A stretch of 64,000 nucleotides of DNA, taken from the NCBI GenBank assembly GCA_020137815.1, contig CM035355.1:5704001-5768000 (forward strand), written 5' to 3'. The translations under genes and the position numbers were made by a program. Below are positions 835 to 29,400 of this stretch, piece by piece. The notes under the pieces were generated by a model. The model saw only the letters and a list, made by a program, of their open reading frames with translations, had not been told where the DNA came from and made no database searches. This stretch comes from Hormiphora californensis (lineage: Eukaryota > Animalia > Ctenophora). Each line of letters starts with the position of its first letter. The stretch's first letter is position 1.

Positions 835-3314
835 CCCTTTGAGGGCGATAGGTCATATATGACACGGTCCATTCTAGACCGTCTGGAAGGCGCTACATGA
901 TGTCTAGGTGGCTAATTTTTTGTCACAGGCTAGTTTTAGGGATTTTGAACCCAAAACCACGTCCAAATCTGCTAGGAAAATCGAAGAAATCTTTTTATGG
1001 CCCTTCTCGGGAGGCTAATTTAGGCCTTTTTTTAAAAACCCCTCTCAAATTTTTGTTTTTGAGGGGCACAAATAATCCTTTGAAGGGATAAAACTACTTG
1101 ACATAACAAATCGAATGCAAAAAACCGCATCAAAAAATATTGAAAATTGAATGAGTTATTAACGTTTTAGTCGTTGTATCATATATGACTCTATCGTCCG
1201 TAAGGGAATTCTAGTAACAAATGTCATTTGTGCAAAAGTATGGGTCCAATAGTCAAATTTTATGCTTTGAGGCAGTCTATAGCTATAATTTCTACAATCT
1301 GGAACGGTTTTTACTAGAAAAATACCCCAAATTCTACATTTTGTATCATATATGACTCTATCGTCCCAATTGGTAAATTCTCCAAAAACATCCATAACTC
1401 GGGCTAGAAAAGGAGCTAAGAGTCAAATCAGGGCACTAAACTGTGTAGAATCATCGCATTAGTGGGGGTAGAGCACATATTTAGGTCGCTATTTTGCCCC
1501 CTAATTGAGATAATTGGATAATTAGCCAATTATGTGTCCCGCGCATGCTAATAAATGAAACTTTGCTTTGAGAAGGAGTTATGAGGCAAATGGGGGCACT
1601 AAAATGTGTAGAATCATCACATTAGTGGGGTTAGAGCACATATTTAGGTCTCTATCTGGACCCCTAATTGAGATAATTGGATAATTAGCTAATTAGTTGC
1701 CTTCCAGCGCTAAAAAATTAAATTTGGCGGAGTATACAAGACAAATGGGGGCACTAAAATGTGTAAAATCGTCGCCTTAGTGGGGGCAGAGCACATAGCT
1801 GAGTTTCTATTTCCGCTCCTAATTGAGATAATTGGATAATTAGCTAATTGACGGTTGCATAATGCCCCCTTTTCACCATATACCGTGGTTTCTGGCTAAT
1901 CCTGAGCTCTTTTGTTCAATCTAAGGATCTTTTGGCATCCCTTTACCCAATTTGTATCACCTTTGACTCGTTTTACACACTAATATAGCACTCTATACAA
2001 CCCTGGACACCGCCTTCAGCTCTTTAGAATCCTCTTGCTTAATCCTAGACCTCTCATAATTTCGAGATCCATACACCTTCCTAACCGATTTTTTTGGGAT
2101 ATCCTATTGCTCCTACAAGACGTTCAACCCCTAATGTACTACAGTTTCCCATTTTATTATTGGACACACAGTTTAGATTCCCCATACATTATTTCTCATC
2201 ATCACTCTCACAATCTCATTTGCCACTAAGGAAACTTCTCGTGAACTCCATCGGAAATAAAGATGATCTGTAGAAGGCGTTTAGTATGGTGTATGAGAGG
2301 TCTAGCTAGGAGTAGGATGAAGCAAGGGGGTTGTACAGAGCTGAAGTCGGCGTCTAGGGTTGTAAAGAGTGCTATATTATTGTGTAAAACGAGTCAAAGG
2401 TGATACAAATTGGGTAAAGGGATGCCAAAAGATCCTTAGATTGAACAAAAGAGCTCAGGATTAGCCAGAAACCACGGTATATGGTGAAAAGGGGGCATTA
2501 TGCAACCGTCAATTAGCTAATTATCCAATTATCTCAATTAGGAGCGGGAATAGAAACTCAGCTATGTGCTCTGCCCCCACTAAGGCGACGATTTTACACA
2601 TTTTAGTGCCCCCATTTGTCTTGTATACTCGGCCAAATTTAATTTTTTAGCGCTGGAGGGCAACTAATTAGCTAATTATCCAATTATTTCAATTAGGGGT
2701 CCAGATAGAGACCTAAATATGTGCTCTAACCCCACTAATGTGTTGATTCTACACATTTTAGTGCCCCCATTTGCCTCATAACTCCTTCTCAAAGCAAAGT
2801 TTCATTTATTAGCATGCGTGGGACACATAATTGGCTAATTATCCAATTATCTCAATTAGGGGGCAAGATAGCGACCTAAATATGTGCTCTACCCCCACTA
2901 ATGCGATGATTCTACACAGTTTAGTGCCCTGATTTGACTCTTAGCTCCTTTTCTAGCCCGAGTTATGGATGTTTTTGGAGAATTTACCAATTGGGACGAT
3001 AGAGTCATATATGATACAAAATGTAGAATTTGGGGTATTTTTCTAGTAAAAACCGTTCAAGATTGTAGAAATTATAGCTATAGACTGCCTCAAAGCATAA
3101 AATTTGACTATTGGACCCATACTTTTGCACAAATGACATTTGTTACTAGAATTCCCTTACGGACGATAGAGTCATATATGACACAGTGGGCCCAGCAAAA
3201 ACTACATGTCGAAACTTCAAATTTCTTTTTCGAGGTAGTTTGTGGTAATAATATCTACTTATAAACGAAAAATTAGAAAAGTCTATCGAGCCAATCCTTC
3301 TCGCCCTTAAAGGG
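835..3314. mobile_element. Non-autonomous piggyBac-type DNA transposon with long internal inverted repeats
   Basis: TTAA at 831-834 and 3315-3318. Termini CCCTTTGAGGGCGA / TCGCCCTTAAAGGG (14-bp TIR, 1 mismatch). Internal inverted arms ~1178-2022 and ~2336-3182. Repeated subterminal motif GATAGAGTCATATATGA. No transposase ORF. Confidence 0.85.
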
Positions 3315-4830: not shown

Positions 4831-5708
4831 GTGAACACAGGATTTTGCATGGCTCTGGGATTACAGCCAGCTCTGTTGATGTCTGGGGTTCGCTTGGGAC
4901 ACACAAAAGTGAACGACAAGAGGGCGCGATTATAATCTGGGTGCCTTGCGGCGTGTTTACAGGTGCGCGCTGCCAAAAAAGTACACCTAAAACCACTTAG
5001 ACCAACTTTTTTCAAACGGCTATAGCCGTGCAACCACATGGCCGATTTGAGTAAACTAAACGGTATCTGATAGAGAATCGATAGCCCTAACCGACAACCA
5101 CAAACAAAACTCTAACCCGACCCTAACAACAGCCCTAACCCGTCTCGACCGCCAAAATCGATGAATTGTTAGCAATACTGGTGCGGGGGCGCTGCGCACT
5201 TTGGTGCCCTTGATTTCTTTTCTACTTGTTTCCGGGGGCGGTTTTTGCCGTGTATCGAATTTGTCCTGGGCTGTATTTGTGCGGGTGCAGAGTGGACCCG
5301 GAAATGGCCGATTTCTCCGTCGCGGTGCCCGCGGTGAATTTTTTTGGTGGTTGTGGGGACCCATTGGGGTGCCCTGGAGGTGGAGTCGCTTTTGGATCAA
5401 TTAGTTCCATTTCACAACGTCATATGACTGGCCTATTAGCTCACTCACTTTGTTTTATCATCCTATCTTTCACCCTTACTCCTCACTCATCGTTTGACTT
5501 AGCTTCACCCCCATTCCTTCAGTATTTATTTTTTAAGCGTTAATATTTTTACTCTTTAACTTATTCTTCTCTTATCACTTTAATCACACTTTAATTTATT
5601 CTTATCTTATCACTTTAATCTCAATTTAATTTAATTAATTAACTTTAATCACTATTTTATACGTTTTATACGTTTTATATTTTATAAGGCTATCTAGTAC
5701 ATAGTATA

Positions 5709-5742
<34 letters not shown>

Positions 5743-6088
5743 TCAAGTTTTGTATACCGCCACAGACACGACAGGGCCAGACAAGTCAAACTGTATCTGA
5801 CACTGACGAGCTTCAGAGCGGTATACCTAACGCAGAAAAGATCCTTATATTCTTACACACTTTGGAAAAAACTCACTCCTAATTGAAGATATACTAAAAA
5901 TATAACTGGTCACATAACTTTCAAAAAACTGATAAGATGAAAAAATTACAGACTTTATTAAATAAAGGGGACAAAGCCAACAACCCACACTTATCAGCAG
6001 CTCAACAATACTGACAAAAAAGCCCTAAGTGAAAATGGTGAGCACGCCCAAGACCGCCTACTGACAGATGGGGAGTCCGGTGAACAAC

Positions 6089-9000
6089 TCAGACGCCACA
6101 CCGGGAGTCTTCAGGAGTAGTTGCTGGGAACGCTTCAAGGAAAAGTCTGGTCTTCAACTTAGATTTGAACAACTCAATGGGGTGTACAGATCTCAGGTCC
6201 AAAGGCAAGGAGTTCCAAACTGTCGGTAGAAACACCGAAACCCTCCTCCTCCTCAGTTTAGAGTTTGCATTAACGCTCGAGAGTTTAGGATATTTCAGTT
6301 TATAGAAGTCAATCACTGAATTCGCTCTCGTTGGTCTCATATCCAGAATATCCTCATCTCTAGGGACCAGTTCTTGTAAATACTCCGGAGCAGTTCCACG
6401 TACAATTTTGTACGCCAACAGGCAGGCCTTGAAGGTCAGTCTCTGCTGTATTGGGAGGATATGAGCTTCCTTGAAATACTCATCATAGCTATCCTGATGT
6501 CCTCGCAAGTTATAGATGAACCGTACGCAGGAGTTCAGAACCTTTTGAAGGTTGTTCAGAATCCGTTTAGGAAGTCCAAAGTACAGGATATTACAGTAGT
6601 CTATCTTTGATATGACTAATTGCTTCACAAGAAGAATCCGTGTGCTATTATCCAAACACTTATTGAGTTGCCATAGGTTCTTGAGTTGCAGTCCACATTG
6701 TCTCTTAACATTGTTCACCTGCCTCTCCAGGGTAAGATGCTCATCCAAAAGTATTCCTAGAGTCTTCCCTGTGCTTCCTCTGCATTCCATAGGCTGCAAG
6801 CACTGTGTCACCCCAAATCTGATTTCCGGATCGAATACCATCTTCTCAAGAGAGCTTGATTTTCCAAGAAGAACAAACTCAGTCTTACTCTCATTACATT
6901 TGAGCCAATGTTGCACCATCCAGTTCTTAATAGAAGTGAGGCACTCCTCAATACTATTCTTCGTACCTTTCCACCCTTCACTATCCGTTGGGACAAGTCC
7001 AACATATAACTGGGAATCATCGGCATACAGCTTTATCATCAGACCATATGGTCTAGCAATATCCTGTAGCTCCTCAATGTACAACAGGAACAGTACAGGA
7101 CCCAACAAAGATCCCTGTGGTACTCCACAAATGAGAGCGATGACCTCCGAGAGTTCACCATTGACATTTACTCTGTAACTCCTGGAACTCAGATAACTCT
7201 TAAACCATCCAAGAGCACTTCCCTTCACACCAAACCTCACCTCCAGCACCTCCATCAGCTTCTCGTGATCAACGGTATCAAAAGCTGCGCTCATGTCCAA
7301 GAGCATGAGTGCCGCCACTTTTCCAGAATCAAGTTCTCTCAGCAAGTCATCAAACATTCCAGCCAGAAGAGTTTCGCAGCTATGACCAGTTCGGTAGCCC
7401 GACTGATTGGCATTCAGTAAGTCATTTTTCTGTAGGTAGTCATTCATTTGAATCAATACCACCTTTTCCAAGACCTTTGAAACAAATGCAATGTTTGAGA
7501 CTGGGCGATAATTGGCCAGAAGATCCCTATCTCCATTCGGATTCTTTATCGTTGGCATGACAACTGCTCTCTGCAGGGGCTCAGGTACTGAAGCTCTGCA
7601 CAATGACTTGTTAATGATAGTCGTTAAAGCAGGTGCCAACTCCTCTAGACAATCCTTCACCAGCCACGTTGGAACTGGATCTAGATCACACGACTTAGAT
7701 GACATCTGCTTCACAATGTGAACAAGATCTTTCTGCGAGATCTCTTTAAACTGACTCAGTTCACAGTCAGGCCTCGATGAACCACCACTTCCTGTTCCTC
7801 TTACATCTTCACCACTCAAACCACTTCCAGTTCCTCTTACAACTTCACCACTCACCCCACTTCCGGTTCCACTTACATCTTCACCACTCACTCCACTTCC
7901 GGTTCCACTTACATCTTCACTACTCACACTCCTACTTCCGGATCCACTTACATCTTCATCTCTCACACCTCCACTTCCAGTTCCACTTACATCTTCACCA
8001 CTCACACTACCACTTCCAGTTCCACTTACATCCTCACTACCTCGACCTTCCTCATGACCACTACATCCAGCCTCTTGCTCTTCGAGTACAGCTGACCGTA
8101 TCCTATCAATCTTTCCAGAGAAAAACTGTGCAAAGTTATCAGCAAGCCTCTTGTCAGATAGTCCACTCGGTAGTAGTGTCTCTTTCTTCCCAAGGAGTCG
8201 ACTTAGCACTTTCTGAAGTCCAGCAGGATCATCCTTTACATCCTCCAGCTTCCTCTTTACGTAATCCATTCTAGCTTCTTTGTCAATCCTCTCAAACTGT
8301 CGTTGGAGTTCCCTGTACCGTGCTTTCGTTAGCCCTGTTTTATTCTTCTCCCACGCTCTCTCCGCCTTCCTTCTCTCCCGCAGGGTGTCTCGAACATCCT
8401 GTCTCTCTCTCCAGGGCCTGAAGTTCTTCACCGATTTCCTTCTTTTAGTCGGGACAAATCTCTCTACAGCCTCCTTCAAAGCCCTATCATACAGATACAA
8501 AGCCTCTTCTGGTGTTACGTCATCTGGAATTTCCAAACACATATCCCTCAGCCCACTCCGAAAGACCTCTACATCCACAGCCTTAAAATCATGGTATACA
8601 CTCATCCTCTCTCTGGAAACATATCTTCCTTCAGAAGCTAACTTAACCTCCGCCATTACCAGATAGTGATCTGACATCGTGCCATCTGGAAATATCCTCA
8701 GGTTCCCCAACTTACTGACCATGTCACGCTGACAGATAATTAAATCCAGTGTTCCTCCTTGAAGATGAGTAGGCAATAGCGGCACATTCTGAACAAAGTC
8801 AAACGAGTCCAGAAGGTTGAGGAGTTTCTTCGCGTAGAAGTTACTGGAGTCTTGTACTTGGAAATTAAAATCGCCCATAATCAGTGGACTTCCAGTTTTC
8901 ATCAGAAGGTCAGAGAGGTAGTCATTGAACTCATCCAGAAAGTTAGCCTCAGTAAACCTTGCTTTACCGTTATAAGGTGGCCTGTAAACATTGCACAGTC

Positions 9001-9409
9001 GCACCAGATCATCCTCTCCGCCAACCAACACTTCCTGTACTTGGAAGGTCTTAAACTTATACTTCACCGGTGCCAACTTCACCATCACTCCATCTCGATA
9101 AAGTACCCCAATTCCTCCACCAGACCTCTCATTCCTCGGGCTCGAGTAAATGTTCCAACCATTCTCCTTAATCTCCTGTATCTTCGCAGTGTCTGTTAAC
9201 TTCAGGTAAGTTTCTTGGACAAGACACACATCGCATGCCTTCTCCTCCAAGTGAGTGAGCACTCCAGCAGTCTTATTCATTATAGAATGAACATTTAGTG
9301 TCCCAATCCTCCAAGTCGTCTTCTCCTCAACTCCTCCATGGCCCTCGTCCGATAACCGTTTTTTGCCTCTTTCTTCACTCCACTTGTCTTCTCCATAAGC
9401 TTTGTTCTC
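6089..9409 (-). CDS. LINE ORF2: apurinic endonuclease plus reverse transcriptase
   Basis: APE motifs RIGTLNVHSIMNK, LVQET, GGGIG, NVYRPP, MGDFN, TLDLI, SDH. RT motifs YRPVSN, QSGYR, LDMSAAFDTVDH, GVPQGSLLGP, YADD. First ATG is at 9280, but the frame is open back to 9409 and motif I lies upstream of that ATG. Confidence 0.93.
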   Translation of the reverse strand, partial: ENKAYGEDKWSEERGKKRLSDEGHGGVEEKTTWRIGTLNVHSIMNKTAGVLTHLEEKACDVCLVQETYLKLTDTAKIQEIKENGWNIYSSPRNERSGGGIGVLYRDGVMVKLAPVKYKFKTFQVQEVLVGGEDDLVRLCNVYRPPYNGKARFTEANFLDEFNDYLSDLLMKTGSPLIMGDFNFQVQDSSNFYAKKLLNLLDSFDFVQNVPLLPTHLQGGTLDLIICQRDMVSKLGNLRIFPDGTMSDHYLVMAEVKLASEGRYVSRERMSVYHDFKAVDVEVFRSGLRDMCLEIPDDVTPEEALYLYDRALKEAVERFVPTKRRKSVKNFRPWRERQDVRDTLRERRKAERAWEKNKTGLTKARYRELQRQFERIDKEARMDYVKRKLEDVKDDPAGLQKVLSRLLGKKETLLPSGLSDKRLADNFAQFFSGKIDRIRSAVLEEQEAGCSGHEEGRGSEDVSGTGSGSVSGEDVSGTGSGGVRDEDVSGSGSRSVSSEDVSGTGSGVSGEDVSGTGSGVSGEVVRGTGSGLSGEDVRGTGSGGSSRPDCELSQFKEISQKDLVHIVKQMSSKSCDLDPVPTWLVKDCLEELAPALTTIINKSLCRASVPEPLQRAVVMPTIKNPNGDRDLLANYRPVSNIAFVSKVLEKVVLIQMNDYLQKNDLLNANQSGYRTGHSCETLLAGMFDDLLRELDSGKVAALMLLDMSAAFDTVDHEKLMEVLEVRFGVKGSALGWFKSYLSSRSYRVNVNGELSEVIALICGVPQGSLLGPVLFLLYIEELQDIARPYGLMIKLYADDSQLYVGLVPTDSEGWKGTKNSIEECLTSIKNWMVQHWLKCNESKTEFVLLGKSSSLEKMVFDPEIRFGVTQCLQPMECRGSTGKTLGILLDEHLTLERQVNNVKRQCGLQLKNLWQLNKCLDNSTRILLVKQLVISKIDYCNILYFGLPKRILNNLQKVLNSCVRFIYNLRGHQDSYDEYFKEAHILPIQQRLTFKACLLAYKIVRGTAPEYLQELVPRDEDILDMRPTRANSVIDFYKLKYPKLSSVNANSKLRRRRVSVFLPTVWNSLPLDLRSVHPIELFKSKLKTRLFLEAFPATTPEDSRCGV
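7770..8070 (-). repeat. In-frame Gly/Ser-rich minisatellite (VSGEDVSGTGSG-like) in the ORF2 EN-RT linker
   Basis: About 7-8 degenerate 36-42-bp units that keep the ORF open. Confidence 0.85.
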
Positions 9410-10587
9410 TCATTAATGTAGAATGGACACAGAGTACTGGATGCAAGATGTGACCTAGCATGTCTCCTGTCCTCTCTGCCATTACTCTTCTGACAGTTAA
9501 CACAGTTCATCTTCCCTGTATCATTCCTCCTCTTGTGACCACAACTCCGAGTCTCATGATCTCCAGCACAGAAAGCACACACCGCATCTCCATCCTTCTT
9601 TGTACATCTGATCGACCCTGCTACATGTCCAAACTCCTGACAGTGAAAACACTGTACCACATGATATCTGTCCCTGACTGAATACTGTCTCAACTTCAGG
9701 AATACCTTGTCTCCTCTCTGGGCGATCACATTCCTTATTTCTGGAGTTACCTGGAGAACTGCAAACCTTCCAGTGGGATTCATATGAACCACTTTCACTT
9801 TTCCACCCTGATCCACCAGCTTCTTAATTTCCTCATTCTTTCCACTAGTTATCTCCGAGATTAACGTATCCTTGTCAAGCAAGTCCTGCCCAAGATCACC
9901 AATTGAAATTCTTGGGTCAAGGAGCGATTTCGTCTCTGTGACCATCTGAACCTCCTGACCAAGTGCTGGTGGCAAAACATTATTGGCTTCCTGAAGTTGG
10001 TCCTCATTCTGGAATGACAGCCGCACACTACCTTTGTTCACTACCGCATTCAACACAGGAACTCCTTTCAAAGCTTTTTCCACTTGGGGTTTTACAACTT
10101 CCGTCCACTGCGTCTTTGGACAGACCGGGGCAGTACCTTCAGCATCACAGTTGTCCAACCTTATATCAACATACCTCCTCACAGGCGCAACCGGACCTTC
10201 ATCTTCTACAACCTCTTCCTTTCTTCCACGCAGCTCACTCACCTTGTCTTCTACCTTCTGCTCAACCACCGCAAGTAACTCCATCTTCAGACTCTCAAAG
10301 CTTTCCTTCAGTACATCCGCTACACTCCCCACCAGGGACGTGTCCAATACGGAACTAACACCACTATCAAATCTCACCCTCGGGTTGTCTGGAATCAAGG
10401 AATAAGCAGCACAGAGAAGTTCCCAGGCATTGTCTTTGTTGAACGAAGGAGCATCCCCACCTACCCGAAGACGATCCAAGACATGCTCACCACTACACCT
10501 ATTATAAGTCAGAGCTTTAAGAGCTCTATCAAACTCATCTTTACTCGTTATCTCTACGTCATTAATTCTCATAGTCATACTGTTCAT
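9295..10587 (-). CDS. LINE ORF1, gag-like nucleic-acid-binding protein with zinc knuckles
   Basis: 430 aa. CFHCQEFGHVAGSIRC, CAFCAGDHETRSC and CVNC...H...C knuckles near the C-terminus; probable coiled coil upstream. Confidence 0.9.
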   Translation of the reverse strand: MNSMTMRINDVEITSKDEFDRALKALTYNRCSGEHVLDRLRVGGDAPSFNKDNAWELLCAAYSLIPDNPRVRFDSGVSSVLDTSLVGSVADVLKESFESLKMELLAVVEQKVEDKVSELRGRKEEVVEDEGPVAPVRRYVDIRLDNCDAEGTAPVCPKTQWTEVVKPQVEKALKGVPVLNAVVNKGSVRLSFQNEDQLQEANNVLPPALGQEVQMVTETKSLLDPRISIGDLGQDLLDKDTLISEITSGKNEEIKKLVDQGGKVKVVHMNPTGRFAVLQVTPEIRNVIAQRGDKVFLKLRQYSVRDRYHVVQCFHCQEFGHVAGSIRCTKKDGDAVCAFCAGDHETRSCGHKRRNDTGKMNCVNCQKSNGREDRRHARSHLASSTLCPFYINERTKLMEKTSGVKKEAKNGYRTRAMEELRRRRLGGLGH

Positions 10588-10750
10588 CCTAAAACACCTG
10601 GCTCACACTCCTGGACAGAGATTAACACTATCCCCAAAACTCAAATAACGTTCACAAAAAAGCCCAAGTGAAAGAGATTTGCGTTACTCAAAGATATCGG
10701 AGAATAGTAAATTAACTCTGACACGGATCGAATCGATTATAAGCGGAACA

Positions 10751-10785
10751 CTCAAATTAATTTGTTTAAAGTAGTGTTGAAAAGT
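10751..10785 (-). other. Spliced-leader (SL) exon relic at the LINE 5' end
   Basis: Minus strand reads ACTTTTCAACACTACTTTAAACAAATTAATTTGAG, matching the ctenophore SL as I recall it (...CAACACTACTTTAAACAAATTAATTTGAG). Near-identical copy at 58269-58303. Confidence 0.78.
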
Positions 10786-11276
10786 ATATATATATATATA
10801 TATATAAGTATATATATATATATATTCTAGTACATAGTGCTAATCTACTTATCTATATAATCGAGAATCTTTATGATAATCCTATTTTGCTCACAAAAAG
10901 GAGTGTGTGTATGTTGATTTTGCCAATGTATACAATATAGATTTAATAATAATAATAATAGCAATGGAAGGCACCCAGATTTTAACGTTTTCCGAACCAA
11001 AGAAGCTTCTGCAGAATTCTGAAAACCCCGTACCGGCCCCGTTTTCTAATTCGGTTGCGCGTTACGCAGAGCAGTGCACACACAATTTCCTCGCGCGTTG
11101 ATGGTGTTTCCAATTGGTATATTTCCTCGATACCCCCCTCTGTAAAACACGATTTGCAACAACCGGTAGTACTACCGTCTACTTCTAGTATTACCAATGT
11201 CAGTCGGCCAGTGGCAGGGGAAATAATTGATACTTACTATTTAATTATCGAATAACGAGAAATGACTCATTCATTA

Positions 11277-12994: not shown

Positions 12995-15352
12995 GTGATG
13001 AAGGCTAGAGTAGAGGAAATCTCCAAGTCGGTGGTTAGAAATTTGTCATCCCAAGAGATCCCGGATGAGGTCTATTTGTTTTTAGACAAGGGCCTTAACT
13101 TTGTGGAGGCGAAGTCGGTCAACAAACAGGACCTGCTGTTTGACACTAAGGACTTCCTCCGAAAGTTGGCATGGAAAGGTTTCTTTTTCCACAACACGAC
13201 AGATCTGGAGTTAGAGCCTAGGACGGATGGCGGTAACAACCGGCCGGACCTACATATTCCCTCAAGGAGCCATCCAGATTTTTCACACCCAGCCTTGGAT
13301 GATGTCCGGACGAGACTACTAGGCTATGTCAAAAATCTGGATAGCATACCGGCTAAACGGAACACCACTAATGCCGAGCGCCAAGGGAAGAATTGGCTCC
13401 TGAAAAAGGTTAGGGACGAGGTACTCTTTGTCACTAAAGCTGATAAAGGAGGGGCCACCCTGATACTTGATTATGACGTGGTCCTGGACACAATCCAGGA
13501 GGCCCTGAATGATGCGAGCGTTTTCGAAAGATTGGACTGCACAGTGGACGAGCATATGACTTTAACCACCAACTTGGTCAAAGATACTGTCCGGACAGAG
13601 CATGCCGCTGGTAGGATAGACAATTCGAATAAGAAGCTGATCACAGGGTTAAATGAGCGAGACAACATGGTAACTTCACCGGTGTTCCGCACGTCTATTC
13701 CTTATGTGTATCCCCTCTTTAAGATACATAAACTGAAACTGGAGGAAATAGAAAACCACGTCACACCCCCAGCGAGACTGGTCCACGCCACGAGACAAGG
13801 ACCGTTCTATAGACTGGAAAAATGGTTGGCACCAGAACTCTCGGAGCTAAGCCGCATGTACTGTGGAGAGGAGTTCATTTTAGATTCGGACCACCTACTC
13901 GGGCAGATAGATGAAATTGGAGGTGATTTAACAACGGGGACACGCCTCTTCACACTTGATGTTATTGCATTGTACCCCAGTATTGACCCTTCCCTAGCCC
14001 TAGAAGCTCTCGATGACGCTTTGAGGGTGTGCAGAACACCGCACAAGGTGGCGACTACGGTGAGAAACTTTACAGTTTTGATACTGAGGGAGTCATTTGT
14101 CACATTCGAGGGATCAGTGTACAAAGGCGTGAGAGGAATTCCAACGGGAAATTGTATTTCCCGCCAGATTGCAGATATAACGCTCCATTACCTTCTTTTC
14201 ATCAAACTGCCAGGCGCGATTCCTAAACAGGTTACATTTTGGAGACGTTTCATAGATGACGTTTTGGGTTTTTGGAGGGGAACAGAAAGGTCCTTTAGTG
14301 TATACATTGACCGTTTAAACTCCATGACGGCACCGCTCGGAATCGTTTTCGGAGATTCCCAAATAGGGACTGAAGTTAACTACCTGGACATCAAGTTCAA
14401 TCTCAGTAACACGGGCTTGGACTATACTTTGTTTAGGAAGGAGACTGATGCACGCCTCTATCTGAAGACAGACAGTTTCCATCCCCAACATGTCTTCAGA
14501 TCTGTTGTAATGTCCCAGATGATTCGAGTTGTTAACCGGAATTCTAGACCCTCACCTCTGAAAAGAGATTTAGACCAACTTAAGAGGGACTTGATGAGGA
14601 GTGGTCATGAGGAAGTGCTCCTGGAGGAAATGGAGCCCTTGGCGAAACGGAGGGCGACCGGTGAGGTAAGGATGGACAAACATGGTAAGGAGGAGGGTCA
14701 GACTTTGATATTCAGCACCCTCTACTATGAGGAGGTAGATGAACTTCGGGCCTTGGTGAGGGACTGTCAGACCAGTATCGACCTGGTGACAGGTACTAAA
14801 ACCCGGGTGATCATAGCACTCAGAAAAGGCCCTACTATTGGTAGCGAAATAGTTAGGAATAGGGCTATGAGCGTAAGTGAGGACACTCTGCACCAAATGT
14901 CAGTAGCTCCTCCGAACCAAAAGTGCGGTGGCAAGGGCTGTAAGACTTGCCCACTTATGTTTGAGGATCCTAAATCAGTGACGGTTAACGGCTCTCCTAC
15001 CAGATTGGACATGAGGTTAACATGCAAAGCAGCGGGGGTGATTTATGTCGCTAAATGTACAATTTGTGAGGAATGTTACTTTGGACAGACCCACTCACCC
15101 TTCCATATCCGGATAAACGGACACCGCTCGAAATTCAAAACCACCGGACTCGAATTTGAGCAAAGTGCTTTAGCGTACCACATGTTCCTAAAACACCGTA
15201 GCGCTAATAAGGACGATTTCACCATTAGCAATTTTAAAGTTGGTATTGTGAAGAGTGGTCGCGCAACCGATCTCGATAGATTGGAAGAGGGTTATATTGA
15301 CTCGTATGGAACTAGGTTGCAGGGTCTTAATCGTATCGCGGTCGTTCGTTAA
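12995..15352 (+). CDS. PLE reverse transcriptase plus GIY-YIG endonuclease
   Basis: KADKG, LFTLDVIALYPSI, GIPTGNCISRQIAD, WRRFIDD. Cys linker CGGKGCKTC (Neptune-like). VIYVAKCTICEECYFGQT...RINGH, H..KH, C-terminal GLN. Frame is open upstream into an Arg-rich stretch. Confidence 0.92.
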   Translation: MMKARVEEISKSVVRNLSSQEIPDEVYLFLDKGLNFVEAKSVNKQDLLFDTKDFLRKLAWKGFFFHNTTDLELEPRTDGGNNRPDLHIPSRSHPDFSHPALDDVRTRLLGYVKNLDSIPAKRNTTNAERQGKNWLLKKVRDEVLFVTKADKGGATLILDYDVVLDTIQEALNDASVFERLDCTVDEHMTLTTNLVKDTVRTEHAAGRIDNSNKKLITGLNERDNMVTSPVFRTSIPYVYPLFKIHKLKLEEIENHVTPPARLVHATRQGPFYRLEKWLAPELSELSRMYCGEEFILDSDHLLGQIDEIGGDLTTGTRLFTLDVIALYPSIDPSLALEALDDALRVCRTPHKVATTVRNFTVLILRESFVTFEGSVYKGVRGIPTGNCISRQIADITLHYLLFIKLPGAIPKQVTFWRRFIDDVLGFWRGTERSFSVYIDRLNSMTAPLGIVFGDSQIGTEVNYLDIKFNLSNTGLDYTLFRKETDARLYLKTDSFHPQHVFRSVVMSQMIRVVNRNSRPSPLKRDLDQLKRDLMRSGHEEVLLEEMEPLAKRRATGEVRMDKHGKEEGQTLIFSTLYYEEVDELRALVRDCQTSIDLVTGTKTRVIIALRKGPTIGSEIVRNRAMSVSEDTLHQMSVAPPNQKCGGKGCKTCPLMFEDPKSVTVNGSPTRLDMRLTCKAAGVIYVAKCTICEECYFGQTHSPFHIRINGHRSKFKTTGLEFEQSALAYHMFLKHRSANKDDFTISNFKVGIVKSGRATDLDRLEEGYIDSYGTRLQGLNRIAVVR

Positions 15353-20400: not shown

Positions 20401-23400
20401 TGTTTCGGATGTCTAGCTGAGGTACAGCTACCTTATTATAACTCTCCTTCTTCTCTATACAGATGTGAGGTAGACTGGGAGATAACTGATGGAGCAGGGA
20501 TCCAATCAGAGGACACACAAACCATTGTGGAGTTTTTTGGTAAGTTTAGAGAGCCCTGGGAGTCATATTGAACCCTGTGCTCTCTGTGAAGCTAAAGAGA
20601 TATGTGAGCAGAGATCGCACCATAGTGCACTAGGGGTGCCAATATGCTACAATATACAGTTCTAACACACCTTGTTCTTCACAGATTTTAAGTCGGAGTA
20701 CCCCGGTCGTGTTGGTGATAGTGGATCACCAACCTTATTGGCAAAGGGGGACGCAGTTATCACTCTATCCTGTGAAACGTTCCCTATATCAGGTACATTC
20801 ATATTGTGGCATAGCTTAATCGGCCCAACTTCCCCTTTAGCCTTCCGGGCGGTCCGGCTTCCAGCTCAGCTTACTACCCTTTCCCGTTTCTACCCTTTTA
20901 GAATAAACCTCTAACCACTTACCCACTATAATATCCCATATTAGGAGGCACCCAGCCGGAGGTCTACTTCCATGTTGACAGTGTAAAGGAGGCTAACCCC
21001 TCAACGACCCACATAATCACTGTCAGTAAGGAGACAACAGAAGTGTTCTGTACAGCAACTCTCCTTCGCCATGTCACCTATAACCTCCAAAACAGTCACC
21101 GTTACACGAACAGGTGAGTTTGTTAGAATTTATACCTCAGGAATGTCTCAAGAATCTAAGAAACTTTGCCACTTTGACCTCCTAATCTCTGAGAAACTTT
21201 GCCACTTTGACCTCCTAATCTCTAAGAAACTTTCCCACTTTTACCCACCTATAAATCTCTAAGAAACTTTCCCACTTTGACCCATCTTATCTCTAAGAAA
21301 CTTTCCCACTTTGAACCTCCTCATCTCTAAGAAACTTTCCCACTTTGACCCAACTAATCTCTAAAAAAATTCCCACTTTGACCCTCCTTATCTCTAAGAA
21401 ACTTTCTCCATTTTGACCCTCCTTATCTCTAAGAAACTTTCCCACTTTGACCCTCCTTATCTCTAAGAAACTTTCCCACTTTGAACCTCCTTATCTCTAA
21501 GAAACTTTCCCACTTTGACCCTCCTTATCTCTAAGAAACTTTCCCACTTTGACCCTCCTTATCTCTAAGAAACTTTCCCACTTTGACCCTCCTTATCTCT
21601 AAGAAACTTTCCCACTTTGACCCTCCTTATCTCTAAGAAACTTTCCCACTTTGACCCTCCTTATCTCTAAGAAACTTTCCCACTTTGACCCTCCTTATCT
21701 CTAAGAAACTTTCCCACTTTGAACCTCCTTATCTCTAAGAAACTTTCCCACTTTGACCCTCCTTATCTCTAAGAAACTTTCCCACTTTGACCCTCCTTAT
21801 CTCTAAGAAACTTTCCCACTTTGAACCTCCTCATCTTTAAGAAACTTTCCCACTTTGACCCTCCTTATCTCTAGGAAACTTTCCAACTTTGACCTCCTTA
21901 TCTCTAAGAAACTTTCCCACTTTGAACCTTCTCATCTTTAAGAAACTTTCCCACTTTGACCCTCCTTATCTCTAAGAAACTTTCCCACTTTGACCCTCCT
22001 TATCTCTAAGAAACTTTCCCACTTTGAACCTCCTTATCTCTAAGAAACTTTCCCACTTTGAACCTCCTTATCTCTATTTAACTTTCCCACTTTGAACCTC
22101 CTTATCTCTAAGAAACTTTCCCATTTTGACCCTCCTTATCTCTAAGAAACTTTCCCACTTTGACCCTCCTTATCTTTAAGAAACTTTCCCATTTGAACCT
22201 CCTTATCTCTAAGAAACTTTCCCACTTTGACTCTCCTTATCTCTAAGAAACTTTCCCACTTTGAACCTCCTTATCTCTAAGAAACTTTCCCACTTTGACC
22301 CTCCTTATCTCTAAGAAACTTTCCCATTTGAACCTCCTTATCTCTAAGAAACTTTCTCACTTTCACCCTCCTTATCTCTAAGAAACTTTCCCACTTTGAC
22401 CCTCCTTATCTCTAAGAAACTTTCCCACTTTGAACCTCCTTATCTCTAAGAAATTTTCCCACTTTGACTCTCCTTATCTCTAAGAAACTTTCCCACTTTG
22501 ACCCTCCTTATCTCTAAGAAATTTTCCCACTTTGCAACCCTCCTTATCTCTAAGAAACTTCCCACTTTGACCCTCCTTATCTCTAAGAAACTTTCCCACT
22601 TTGAACCTCCTTATCTCTAAGAAACTTTCCCATTTTGACCCTCCTTATCTCTAAGAAACTTTCCCATTTTGACCCTCCTTATCTCTAAGAAACTTTCCCA
22701 ATTTGACCCTCCTTATCTCTAAGAAACTTTCCCACTTTGACCCTCCTTATCTCTAAGAAACTTTCTCACTTTGACCCTCCTTATCTTTAAGAAACTTTCC
22801 CATTTGAACCTCCTTATCTCTAAGAAACTTTCCCACTTTGACTCTCCTTATCTCTAAGAAACTTTTCCACTTTGACTCTCCTTATCTCTAAAAAACTTTC
22901 CCACTTTGAACCTCCTTATCTCTAAGAAACTTTCCCACTTTGACCCTCCTTATCTCTAAGAAACTTTCCCACTTTGACCCTCCTTATCTCTAAGAAACGT
23001 TCTCACTTTGACCCTCCTTATCTTTAAGAAACTTTCCCATTTGAACCTCCTTATCTCTAAGAAACTTTCCCAATTTGACCCTCCTTATCTCTAAGAAACT
23101 TTCCCACTTTGACCCTCCTTATCTCTAAGAAACTTTCTCACTTTGACCCTCCTTATCTCTAAGAAACTTTCCCACTTTGAACCTCCTTATCTCTAAGAAA
23201 TTTTCCCACTTTGACTCTCCTTATCTCTAAGAAACTTTCCCACTTTGACCCTCCTTATCTCTAAGAAACTTTCCCACTTTGAACCTCCTTTTCTCTAAGA
23301 AACTTTCCCACTTTGACCCTCCTTATCTCTAAGAAACTTTCCCACTTTGAACCTCCTTATCTCTAAGAAACTTTCCCACTTTGACCCTCCTTATCTCTAA

Positions 23401-26400
23401 GAAACTTTCCCACTTTGACCCTCCTTATCTCTATGAAACTTTTCCATTTTTACCCTCCTTATCTCTATGAAACTTTTCCATTTTTACCCTCCTTATCTTT
23501 AAGAAACTTTCCCACTTTGAACCTCCTTATCTCTAAGAAACTTTCCCACTTTGACCCTCCTTATCTCTAAGAAACTTTCCCACTTTGACCCTCCTTATCT
23601 CTAAGAAACTTTCCCACTTTGAACCTCCTTATCTCTTAGAAACTTTCCCACTTTGACCCTCCTTATCTCTAAGAAACTTTCCCACTTTAGCCCTCCTTAT
23701 CTCTAAGAAACTTTCCCACTTTGACCCTCCTTATCTCTAAGAAACTTTCCCACTTTGACCCTCCTTATCTCTAAGATACTTTCCCACTTTGAACATCCTT
23801 ATCTCTAAGAAACTTTCCCACTTTGACCCTCCTTATCTCTAAGAAACTTTCCCACTTTGACCCTCCTTATCTCTAAGAAACTTTCCCACTTTTACCCTCC
23901 TTATCTCTAAGAAACTTTCCCAATTTGACCCTCCTTATCTCTAAGAAACTTTCCTACTTTGACCCTCCTTATCTCTAAGATACTTTCCCACTTTGAACAT
24001 CCTTATCTCTAAGAAACTTTCCCACTTTGACCCTCCTTATCTCTAAGAAACTTTCCCACTTTGACCCTCCTTATCTCTAAGAAACTTTCCCACTTTGACC
24101 CTCCTTATCTCTAAGAAACTTTCCCACTTTGACCCTCCTTATCTCTAAGAAACTTTCCTACTTTGACCCTCCTTATCTCTAAGATACTTTCCCACTTTGA
24201 ACATCCTTATCTCTAAGAAACTTTCCCACTTTGACCCTCCTTATCTCTAAGAAACTTTCCCACTTTGACCCTCCTTATCTCTAAGAAACTTTCCCACTTT
24301 GACCCACGTAATCTCTAAGAAACTTCCCTACTTTGATTGGCAGGATATTTACAACCTTGGTGTACCTTTCTGAATCTATAGGCAGTGTCGGACTTATTTT
24401 CATGATCCAGCTCTGTCTGGACAGAACCCTTTTACCTCCGCAAACAATCCTCCGCAAACAATCCCAATCATGGTTTATATGTTGCCATGGGTAATACTAG
24501 TTTCCATCTCATGTATCTTCATCAGATGGTGCGGTGTCTATCAACCCCTCTCAGCCGGACAGTGCAATAGTGGGTACCCCTGGTGGTGAGATAACCATAA
24601 CATGCTCCGTTGCAGCAGGATCCTCTGAACAGGTTAGACATAATTTGTGTGACAATTCCCATGTTCACAGTTAACAGTTGTAGTATGTACATGTTAATAT
24701 CAAATAGATAGAGATGAATTTAGAAGTATAGAATTGTTAGGGTGCGGGGGTGAAATAAATATAGAAATAAAGGTATAGTAGGCCGAGGGGGTTGTTGTTG
24801 TTTCATATTGAGGGGAGCCGGAGGGGGGGGGGGTGAAACAATTCACCTTGACTTGATGATATTAACAGAGCTCAATTTCCCGTTTTCAGGCGGTGTTGGA
24901 TCTGTATGAGGACGGTTCTACCACATTCACCACTCTAACTAGCACACTTACCGATGGTGTTGCCCTCTTTAAAGGTATGTGTTTTGATGTTATTGTATCA
25001 AATCTCATCCTTGATGGGATGAGTACCGGTATAAGCAGGAAAACTCAATGTCATCATAAATCCGCCACACAATCTCTGCTCGTATGCAGTACTCCATTGC
25101 TGTCGTCAATTTTCTTTTTAAATTCATCCCCTTGTCATTACATATTTAACTTTTCTGATCCTATAATGATTTTACCACCTGCAGCAGAGGCCCAGAAAGT
25201 TATTCATTTTGTCGGAATCAAATTGTTACTGAGAATGGCACGTGCAGATTGACTGATAGTCCGCCCCCAATACCAATCATTTTGTGATTAAGTCCTAACA
25301 ATTACAAAATATAGCCGAATTCCTGGACTAATATCATGGGGCCTATCTCTCTCCCATTGACTTACTTTTCATTTGAGGACCTGTATTTTTATGACATGTG
25401 TCACAAATCCAGTCACCTGGTACACACCTCTATTCTTTTTGAATATGCACATGTCACTAACTCTAAGATCGCAAGGCCCCGGGCCAATCGAGCATTCTCT
25501 CTCCCTTTGTCCCTCTCTCACTCTCTCCCTGCCCCCTCCCCGATCCCTTTCACCTACAATGCTCCAGGTGGTTTAATGACAATGAACATCATGCATCAGC
25601 TAGAGGTCTTGCGACTGCATTTAGGGCCCTACGGCTATAAGGTCAACTATTTAATAGTCAGTTGCTATAACAGTGCCTCCAAGACATGTGTCTTCCCCGT
25701 CCCTTCTCGCTATTGGCCCCTTCCTCGTCCCTAACTCACTATAATTATTATAGTAGTCAATACTATGGTGCCTAGCGAGTTACAACTCGCTATAATAGGC
25801 CCCATAGGTCTTGTTTGACCCTCTCTCTAATTGAGGGTAAGAACATATATCAACTAGGCCCCGTGATAGTACATACTGAGAGTTTTTGAGAGGAGTTGGA
25901 TTGTGTGAGTTTCGCAGTAACTAAATCGTGATCCTCGCATATATAATGCAACATGTGGTCGAGCTATAAAGGCCGAGTGAGAGTGAGAATTGAATCATGA
26001 GAGGGAGTGAGAAGTGGAGAAGTCAGCTTTTTTCCCCTTTGTTCATATTTTGTCCGTTTGTGATAAATTTAGCCAAAGATGCGATGATGTGGTTATAATT
26101 TACGGTAAATAGGGCCCAACTATTAGTACGGACTCATGGGATAATATTCCTGTAATTAACTTAGTTGATGATTACTTGACCTCCTTTGCTCCCTTGCCCC
26201 CAACACTGTAAGATTGCGTTACAGCGTGACCTGAGAGTGGCATCTCCTAATTATGAGAATATGTAATTCCCTTTGTTGTACTTGTACCCCCAGAGACGCT
26301 CTATTGATCCCTCCATGAGATGCTATATTGAACTTATGATCCAGCTATGTAGTGTTTTGATCCCTTAATTTTGAACATGTGCCCAAATCATCCCAAATAT

Positions 26401-29400
26401 AGTTTCACTCTGTATACCACTATTATTCCTTAGCTCAAAGCAAATTACAGAAAAGATCAAAACTCAGACCCCATGGAATCCTTTCTCCCTCGTGGTGCTG
26501 AAACCAGTCCCAACTATGGAGGGGGACCTCCCTTCAACATCACTGACATACAAGGCACCCCGGTAGAGATCACTATCACAGTCCTCTCCCTCCTCGCTGT
26601 CTCAGTCGGGATCCCATCCTGTGCCCTCCAGATCGCCTACATCCTAGTTGGGGCAAAGGAGAAGTTCGGGCTGGGAACTAAGATTTACCTGGCGATATGT
26701 GTGACAGATGTAGTGATCCTGGTCTTCTACCTTCCCATAACCTCCAGTTTCCTGGCTGGCAGAGAGCCCCTGATGTTCCAGAATGTGTACTTCTGTGATG
26801 CCTGGGGAATGGCCTGGTTCACCCTTGTTCGAGTATCGATATTCCTTATCGCCCTGCTCAGTGTTACCCGGACCTTGTCTCTCCTGTCCCCATTCTCCAA
26901 ACCACCCAGCTCGAGACGGATCGTGGCGATTATTATCTTCTACACAGTGTGCCTGATGTTCCAGTCCACTGCTCCTATCTGGTACTTCTCTAACGATTAC
27001 AGTTACTTCTGGCAGGCAGTTCACTGCCAACCCATCCTCAGACAAAGCTCCTTCTTCAATCTCTTTACCTACGTTCTGGAGATCATCGCACCACTCTTTG
27101 TAGTGTCTGTCAGCTGTGCGGTGTCCATGTTTGCCCTCCGAAAAGGGGGCCAGGGTAAGAGTCCGGTGGCGGGTGGAGGTCAGAAGAATGGTCGGGCAAC
27201 CGTGACCATCCTCCTTCTAACTGGAATCTACATCTTCTTCAACACTCCCTTGGTCCTCTTTAACGTGCTCGGTCTTCTGGTCATGAATTTCGAGTGTGCT
27301 GATTGGTTTAGAGTGTTCTTCCATACCCAAGCCTACATTTACGTGTATCTTATGGTGAATGTGGTTAGTATTCCACTTAATGCCACTGCTAATGCCATTC
27401 TGTGGGTCGGCAGGTCTGCCGCAATGAGGAACTGGGTACGGGGCCTCATCACAGGGTGGATCAAACTGTGAACAGACACTGATAGTTGGTCAGAGTGCCA
27501 CCAAACACATGCAGTAATGAATTACTGATCTTTTTTCTCCTCTGAAAATCATAATTTCAAACTTCAAAGGATGAAAAACAGCTAAGGAATGGCTGGAATT
27601 ACCTATAATTATTGGACTGTTTCGGCTATCTGGACAGCAAAGACCCTGATTATGTGTTCTTGTTTATTTTTGTTAAAATTGTATTTATCTTCTTTCTTTT
27701 TAACAAAATGAGCTGTGTGTTGTCATATCAAACCATGACTCCAATTTCAGTAGCCACTAACCATAATATTGGTACCATATTTCTAGAAACCATGGTAACT
27801 AAACTTTATGTATTTTCAGTAACCATGGTAACTAAATCTCTCTTATTTTCAGTTACTGTCAATACACAGGAGAGATGGGCAAGGTGTGGGGTGTTCGTAT
27901 CGTCCCACAAACAGTTCCTTTACTCAGCCGCCAAACGAATATTCTTCAGACGTAAGTAACCATGGTAACCACATGTGTACACATGGTAGCTACATTAGTA
28001 ACCATGGTAACCACATTAGTAACCAGCGTCACCATATCATTAACTAACCAACTTCCCCACGATCAGAGGTTGAACTGGAGCCCTCTCGTTTGACTCTTCT
28101 TGCTGGACAGTCCAGTGAGTTGAAACTGAAGGTTTATGGAGACACCAGTACCCTGACCCTCTCCAACAAGCAGCTAACTACCGTCAAAAACACTGTCAAA
28201 TCAACGGATTGGTAAGAAAGTATATGTTTAGAATATCCCAGGAACCGACCGAATCAGGCAATACTGGTCCCTGATTGGCTGATAACCAGTCACGTGACCT
28301 AAATAACGAGTTCTGATTGGTTGTTTACTTGTTTCGGTCGGTTCCTGCTCACCGGGCGGAACGGAGAGGATCAATTTTCGCATAGTTTAGCCCATGTTTA
28401 CTTGTAATGATATTACCCCCCCCCCCCCCATTAGATTGACTTATTGTTACCCCCGGTCCCCCCCCCCCCCCATTAGATTGACTAATTGTTACCCCCGGTC
28501 CCCCCTTCACCAGGTTGACTTATTATGATATCGATTTGAATAATGCTGATACATCCTGGAATGGAACCCTCTCTGCCGAGATATTGTACACTGATGACAA
28601 GGAACTGATCACCAAAACATCCCTCACTTACATCACAGGTAACAACATCCCTCACTTACATCACAGGTACATATAATCATCTCTGATCATAGGTATGTAG
28701 GTCACCTTGAGATCACATTACATGTGTAGAACCACCTCGATCGAGATCACATTACAGGTAGAATCACAAACAAAATCGAGTATCAATTAATTAATTGAGA
28801 CCACTCATAACCCTCTCCCCTCTATTTCAGATGTCCGTGTCACATCATACTCAGAAAACATCGCTGAGGGTAAAGAAATCATCCTGACGTGTGCCCACTC
28901 TACCCCCACTGATTACAACGCACCCACCGTGACCTGGCTCTTCTCCAAAACCGAGGATGGGGCAACTACAGAACTGAAGAACGCAGATACAAACGGTATG
29001 GGGAGAGAGCTGATCAGTGATTCCTGGCTAGACTGTAAAGGGAGGGTTAGAACATAACAAGATCAGTGATGGACAATCAATCAATGATAAAGTTTGAAAT
29101 TTATTCAGCTGTTGTTCTTATCCCCTTGCCTACGTTGCAGGCTCCTCCCACACAGAGCTGGGCACGAATTCCCCAACTGACCCCCAACTTGTCCTCAATT
29201 TACCCCCCCCCCCCCTCTTCTTTAGACAGGGTTACCATGGTAACCAAACCCCTTTCTTTAGTGACGATAACGAATGGGAGAGATACCTCTAAACTCCTGG
29301 TTTCTGGAGTGTACGACCCCCGGTCTGGGTTCTACTCCTGTTCTGTTGTGTTCAATGATGCTGATGGAAAGGTTGCATTTTACAAGACCAGCACCACCCG

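Follow-up and report, generated by a model that had tools for sequence, protein, structure and literature searches.

A LINE in Hormiphora californensis and its relatives begin with spliced-leader exons and were probably copied from trans-spliced RNA

Introduction

With each round of copying a LINE has to restore its 5′ end, for which two solutions are known: an internal promoter, or co-transcription with a ribozyme. NeSL-1, SLACS, CRE1/2 and CZAR, non-LTR elements of the RLE type, insert into spliced-leader (SL) RNA genes, and the element described here is like them in being a non-LTR element that adjoins leader sequence. The 2010 Hydra genome paper reportedly described CR1 retrotransposition as assisted by trans-splicing. 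In Hydra, full-length CR1 RNA carries a leader, and about 30% of TE Iso-Seq reads have one (PMC12220107; 10.1101/2024.03.13.584568). The likeness to our case is that of a CR1/L2-group LINE in an animal with SL trans-splicing; the available parts of those papers, however, concern RNA in another phylum and contain no genomic 5′ leaders and no test of the leader against an element tree or of the acceptor.

In parasitic flatworms, 597 loci hold a partial leader beside LINE or LTR elements, and the available part of the report suggests that they are integrated trans-spliced transcripts (PMC12582326). These loci resemble ours in that a genomic partial leader adjoins a retrotransposon, but in that part they form a side remark on discarded loci, with no family-wide 5′ anatomy and no renewing cycle. 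In dinoflagellate retrogenes, as far as the available parts of two papers describe them, 5′-shortened genomic relics of DinoSL tag reverse-transcribed mRNA and stack in tandem, up to eight at a time, and re-splicing at the AG within a relic has been discussed (PMC5585692, PMC12014239). There too a shortened leader heads a reverse-transcribed copy, but the dinoflagellate copies are passive host genes with tandem relics, whereas the copy reported here is an autonomous element with ORF1 and ORF2 intact and a single leader in a fixed register.

In Hormiphora californensis, the leader is found on 56% of Iso-Seq reads; the available part of the same paper states that more than half of transcripts start with AG, counts 718 genomic leader copies in Hormiphora and 491 in Mnemiopsis, and describes a Mnemiopsis leader that shares its ending with the Hormiphora leader (PMC8527503). 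Here we analyzed a 64,000-nt stretch of the H. californensis genome (the window), in which a preliminary description had pointed to a LINE headed by a putative SL exon and had assumed the arrangement to be new. The arrangement is less novel than that assumption had it, because SL-headed retrocopies are known as dinoflagellate retrogenes and suggested for flatworm LINEs, and Hydra CR1 has leader-bearing transcripts. The literature that we searched, to which Repbase and most subscription papers did not belong, holds no report of leader-headed LINEs in ctenophores or of leaders that cross an element tree, and the available parts of PMC4989455, PMC11067881 and PMC12460157 hold nothing on leader-headed LINEs.

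Results and Discussion

A two-ORF LINE with a leader at its 5′ end

By ORF and domain criteria, the element in the window is an intact two-ORF APE/RT LINE of the CR1/L2 group (Table 1), and we take the C-terminal motif of its ORF2 to resemble that of L2/CR1 elements. ORF2 matches PF03372/PF14529 at 6–208 and PF00078 at 582–807, an N-terminal APE endonuclease and a reverse transcriptase (RT); LINE-1 ORF2p is its best match among solved structures, and no RNase H family was found in it at E ≤ 0.001. Three Gag-knuckle-like Cys/His clusters in ORF1 (residues 313–328, 337–349 and 362–387), of the kind expected in a two-ORF APE-type LINE, are invariant in the ORF1 alignment, and zf-CCHC matches in the family are weak (E ≤ 0.1 in 10 of 31 members). 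The 3′ tail is a short repeat, TTA in the window element and TTTCA or TTCC in relatives. A gene model of Pleurobrachia bachei matches ORF1 with 87% identity over 47% of its length, and DNA runs of two organisms contain many variants of the family, from one end of the element to the other. Depth along the element, which is not copy number, declines toward the 5′ end in runs X2 and X10. Between the APE and RT of ORF2 lies a Ser/Gly-rich insert, an in-frame 36-nt tandem repeat (7785–8041) whose length differs in the relative L002.

Table 1. Positions of the window element, its putative target-site duplications (TSDs) and the two leader copies
Feature	Position	Strand	Remarks
TSD candidate 2, 5′ copy	10826–10838	−	13 nt
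TSD candidate 1, 5′ copy	10783–10798	−	16 nt, (TA)n-ACT; shares 3 nt with the start of the leader
Spliced-leader exon, nt 10–44 of the published pleurobrachiid leader	10751–10785	−	35 nt; followed by TG, not by a GT donor
5′ UTR	10588–10750	−	163 nt, without ATG; first AG at +32
ORF1	9295–10587	−	430 aa; ATG at 10587
ORF2	6089–9280	−	1063 aa; APE endonuclease and reverse transcriptase, YADD at 752
3′ UTR	5741–6088	−	5.1 kb ending at the tail are 90% identical to L002
(TTA)n tail	5717–5740	−	short-repeat 3′ tail
TSD candidate 1, 3′ copy	5703–5718	−	16 nt
TSD candidate 2, 3′ copy	5693–5705	−	13 nt
Second leader copy	58263–58303	+	41 nt, one mismatch; no GT after it, no LINE behind it

The 35-nt string that the preliminary description had placed at 10785–10751 (−), 163 nt upstream of the ORF1 ATG, is present, and its identification there as the ctenophore SL proved right: compared by eye with the printed 44-nt leader of H. 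californensis, it matches nt 10–44 exactly and lacks the first 9 nt (PMC8527503). A 5′-shortened leader forms the first bases of the reverse-transcribed copy, the feature by which SL relics are recognized. The last 28 nt of the leader match the window twice at up to 3 mismatches, and none of 100 shuffles gave any match. The same string had been reported to recur at 58269–58303; it does recur, with one mismatch and over a longer extent (41 nt, 58263–58303). No leader piece of at least 12 nt occurs elsewhere in the 64 kb, and one 10-nt match at 39732 was taken as chance. We considered and rejected an SL RNA gene, as the window copies are followed by TG (LINE) and CT (second copy) and have no GT donor. 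Across the family, GT directly follows the leader in 6 of 22 elements, the sisters of which mostly have GA. An Rfam search of the window gave no match, and Rfam may lack the ctenophore SL.

The leader had also been described as lying directly against the TSD. This applies to candidate 1, with an overlap of 3 nt, and not to candidate 2, which would leave 40 nt of extra (AT)n-rich sequence before the leader, so that the TSD is ambiguous. L002, which is 90% identical, has a pure TTA tail, and the (TA)n at the 3′ junction in the window is therefore more likely to be target sequence; this favors candidate 1. The seven relative contigs with inspected tails yielded no matching TSDs, as is expected for collapsed assemblies.

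Leaders at the 5′ ends of related elements

An alignment of 31 ORF1 proteins, that of the window element and 30 of 48 database matches, was used as query, and 35 related loci were fetched from metagenome contigs. Such contigs follow majority paths and may miss rare master copies, and where a leader is collapsed, the flank they show may stem from a different leader copy. Of the 35 loci, 21 extend to the start of the 5′ UTR, and a leader is there in every one, as an AT-rich run ending in TTGAG, 98–210 nt upstream of the ORF1 ATG; the contig of L023 begins with the last 6 nt of the leader only. Nine loci, placed by alignment or open frame, begin inside the UTR or ORF1 (L005, L007, L009, L014, L016, L018, L027, L031 and L033). 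Three others (L019, L025 and L032) are 5′-truncated within ORF1, are preceded by unrelated DNA and have no leader; L025 and L024 are 98% identical from base 671 of L025 onward. The remaining two are distant, at 25–27% identity, and without a leader (L034 and L035), and since 1.3 kb upstream of L034 is present, the absence of a leader there counts against the main reading proposed below. ORF1 relatives were found in none of 21 candidate stretches in GTDB genomes and none of 12 in viral contigs, where the leader pattern likewise had no match.

The window-type leader occurs in six relatives and the window element, at lengths of 28, 35, 40, 41, 41, 42 and 43 nt (the last two counted by eye against the printed leader) and with differing flanks. 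The expectation that relatives would start with variably shortened leaders after unrelated flanks was thus borne out, and none of the 21 loci that reach the UTR start lacks a leader or shares another 5′ extension. The other relatives carry other leader types, which share their start, a CTAC-like core and their end, in keeping with the ending common to the Mnemiopsis and Hormiphora leaders; these were called leaders by position and likeness, the window type alone having been checked against print. Among 11 upstream flanks long enough to test (67–305 nt), none showed similarity to another and none held a second relic, so the leaders are single. The last 15 nt of the leader occur once per element in 21 of 21 tested and never at the 3′ end. 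Immediately downstream, the first UTR bases of the window element are conserved in relatives with 60% ORF1 identity, and in five elements, with ORF1 identities as low as 58%, the leader is followed by the same 6 UTR bases.

In the contigs compared, the phenomenon is real and clade-wide, and the template of these copies was very likely a trans-spliced RNA. It is very unlikely that the leader was instead added at insertion, either by RNA ligation, for which U6-L1 chimeras are a precedent, or by a jump of the RT to SL RNA or a leader-capped mRNA as template. Such addition would yield host-type leaders, and leader-bearing RNA is abundant (56% of Iso-Seq reads in the available part of PMC8527503), but the join always falls at the last AG of the exon, with no piece of SL intron or mRNA, the same UTR base is joined in the five elements just mentioned, and the three ORF1-truncated copies have no leader.

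An insertion preference is extremely unlikely to account for the pattern. If the element inserted just behind dispersed genomic leader copies, in a loose NeSL/SLACS-like manner, the leader would be target; many such copies exist (718 in H. californensis, in the available part of PMC8527503), and the window itself holds one without a LINE. The element has an APE endonuclease, however, not an RLE, its truncated copies have no leader, and the leader's single occurrence per element, with none at the 3′ end, does not fit a target. Neither TSD candidate is leader sequence beyond 3 nt, in agreement with the earlier view that the leader is not part of the target. The distinction drawn there from NeSL, SLACS and CRE elements is likewise upheld by the N-terminal APE, the two ORFs, the dispersed sites, the unshared flanks and the absence of a 3′ leader.

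Some details of these 5′ ends are recorded here as observations. The leader is kept from its 5′ AG on in L006:6–48, L020:131–178, L022:10–59 and L026:321–367 (approximate starts), and the initial G of the published leader is absent in all four; given that AG opens more than half of transcripts, A may be the first base of the true leader. The branch-point motif of textbooks, TACTAAC, occurs about 25 nt before the last AG in the leader type of L021:1–51, L026:321–367 and L029:264–308 and is absent in the other 19. Two loci look mosaic, each being either a recombinant or an assembly chimera: L015:1–460 combines the leader and UTR of L017 with ORF1/ORF2 near L011, and L023:1–400 has an ORF1 near L017 with a different UTR.

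Leader types and element phylogeny

Leader and element relationships were compared pairwise, with L023 left out because only 6 nt of its leader are present. Window-type elements have 40–42 identical leader bases, followed by 0–10 exact bases after the junction and an ORF1 identity of 44–63%. L021 and L026, from one assembly, have 45 nt of leader in common at an ORF1 identity of 37%, and L024 and L028 have 41 nt of another leader type in common at 38%. In the ORF1 and ORF2 trees, the latter drawn without L001, L003 and L004, L021+L024 and L026+L028 are sisters with 99–100 support, so that the two sister pairs carry crossed leader types. Clades by leader type were rejected by an ORF1 AU test on 13 of the 22 rows, 9 being left out (p-AU 9e-9 and 4e-5), and by an ORF2 AU test on the first 300 aa of 20 rows (p-AU 4e-5 and 5e-77); the groups were defined by leader sequence, at a time when the first ORF1 tree was already known. 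L012 and L020 are 95% identical in the first 60 UTR bases and 80% identical in the last 25 leader bases. All seven window-type elements fall in a single clade, and the crossed pattern therefore rests on five contigs.

As the leader does not follow the element tree, it appears to be renewed from outside the element. The simplest reading of these trees would be that the same element lineages live in several hosts, each host writing its own leader. Two leader types were found within one assembly twice (L010/L011 and L012/L017), which weakens the case for one leader per host.

The last AG of the leader as a candidate acceptor

In all 22 elements, the UTR has its first AG between +21 and +37. In 15 representatives, the first 20 nt hold no AG, against an expectation of 20.0 from whole UTRs or of 6.6–9.4 when those 20 nt are shuffled (P ≤ 0.0006; P ≤ 0.005 with 10 representatives), with the reservations that this test was chosen after seeing the data and that the rows are related. 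The opposite-strand control, CT, is not depleted after the junction (23 vs 22.8 expected); GG is also scarce there (1 vs 13.7 expected). Further into the UTR, AG clusters at +21 to +40 (28 in the 15 representatives; 10730–10711 (−) in the window), with 7 at +41 to +60.

Because the outron is lost from a new copy, the leader can be renewed in a cycle only if the copy itself contains an acceptor. Were this acceptor upstream of the leader, relics would stack, and the 11 flanks hold none; were it downstream, erosion of the UTR would be expected, and none is seen. The last AG of the leader remains. We had considered a pyrimidine tract with a YAG acceptor about 30 nt downstream, and rejected it because the first 30 nt are not consistently pyrimidine-rich (0.40–0.80) and because use of such a YAG would bring about the erosion just mentioned. 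On this reasoning, a self-renewing acceptor at the last AG is likely. The earlier suggestion that each insertion rebuilds its own acceptor from the leader is thus partly sustained: the fixed register, the lack of tandem relics and the 20 AG-free nucleotides speak for it, and the candidate acceptor itself, GAG in 22 of 22 elements, speaks against it when set beside the UUNYAG of flatworm trans-splice acceptors, a flatworm consensus that may not be that of ctenophores (available part of PMC12582326).

The GAG problem would not arise if the acceptor in use lay elsewhere. A minority of hidden master elements might have a promoter, an outron and an ordinary YAG acceptor, with most of the RNA from these masters undergoing trans-splicing and the resulting leader-headed copies being dead ends. 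Host-type leaders, their fixed register, single leaders and the AG-free zone would follow without a GAG acceptor, the zone being expected also if the acceptor were used only in the masters; metagenome contigs would under-sample such masters, and the flatworm loci with a leader and a LINE are read only as integrated trans-spliced transcripts (available part of PMC12582326). We nevertheless regard this as unlikely. None of the 21 loci that reach the UTR start has a non-leader extension, the ORFs are open in the window copy and in most leader-headed contigs, and unspliced RNA would have to be the sole means by which the lineage persisted throughout the clade.

The leader DNA might alternatively be an inherited internal promoter or start site, occasionally refreshed by trans-splicing or gene conversion. 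Nematode SL RNA genes have a promoter element inside the leader, and the four relatives whose leader is kept from the 5′ AG on (L006, L020, L022 and L026) would fit, as would the GAG, which this explanation need not accommodate. A promoter role has also been proposed for DinoSL relics (available parts of PMC5585692 and PMC12014239). As the sole explanation it is quite unlikely: identical leaders of 41–45 nt at 37–38% ORF1 identity, together with differing leaders in sisters, could arise only if host leaders were copied often, 5′ leader bases are missing from most copies, and the 20 AG-free nucleotides are left unexplained. An internal promoter can, however, coexist with a self-renewing acceptor, as a source of transcription.

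Transcript evidence

In one run of a poly(A) metatranscriptome, the leader bin had a depth of 110.6 and the neighboring bins were empty. In one contig the leader is followed by 255 unrelated letters, the structure expected of a host mRNA that bears a leader. Coverage in this run was confined to the leader, a single piece of ORF1 and parts of the 3′ half, and no contig lay over the 5′ UTR or most of ORF1. With the 5′ UTR itself uncovered, no contig in that run joins the leader to the element UTR, so that we infer trans-splicing of the element RNA from DNA.

A proposed retrotransposition cycle

Our main reading is that the clade probably copies itself from SL-trans-spliced RNA and reuses the last AG of the genomic leader as trans-splice acceptor. 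A full-length copy consists, as observed, of a flank, a shortened leader, the 5′ UTR, ORF1, ORF2 and a microsatellite tail. Transcription would begin upstream of the end of the leader, by read-through or at a weak start in the flank or leader, and in the transcript an AT-rich stretch free of AG would lead up to a final AG, with no competing AG in the next 20 nt. The spliceosome would then exchange everything up to that AG for a complete, capped host leader. LINE ORF2p is known to reverse-transcribe RNA at the new site and often to stop short of the 5′ end, and in this family such stops would leave the 28–43 nt of leader. The leader of the new copy would end in the same AG again, so that the 5′ end would neither erode nor grow and the leader would follow the host, not the element.

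A wider picture is offered tentatively, as we give it less than an even chance. An old ctenophore LINE clade might be without a promoter and live on read-through, its leader a self-renewing GAG acceptor guarded by an AG-free zone and its 5′ end re-capped by the spliceosome in each cycle; the leaders would then record the current SL of the host and would help account for the hundreds of leader copies dispersed through ctenophore genomes.

If the cycle holds, re-splicing by the host at the leader that the element itself carries would add a third to the two solutions known for restoring a LINE 5′ end, and one visible across a clade. It would offer an origin for part of the 718 Hormiphora and 491 Mnemiopsis genomic leader copies, with the warning that genomic leader copies are not all SL RNA genes. 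For environmental DNA, element leaders might serve as a way to read host leaders.

The second leader copy and other features of the window

The second leader copy fills the loop of a MITE-like inverted repeat of about 250 bp (58159–58410, 77% identity between arms 58159–58256 and 58301–58410), the right arm of which starts with the last 3 nt of the leader. This repeat is possibly a mobile carrier of leader copies.

A 784-aa ORF at 12998–15352 (+) looks Penelope-like by eye, with an RT and a C-terminal GIY-YIG-like part; it has no Pfam match at 0.001 and, as follows from the search for leader pieces of at least 12 nt, no leader upstream. Two long ORFs belong to the rhodopsin-family GPCRs, at 26473–27471 (+) and 49111–51858 (−), the second with LDL-A domains and a repetitive tail. 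Large fold-back repeats (878-nt arms and nested 492/459-nt arms) and a long 34-nt satellite occupy 1175–3185, 45047–47423 and 21133–24500, and a high-depth repeat lies just upstream of the LINE at 10849–11000.
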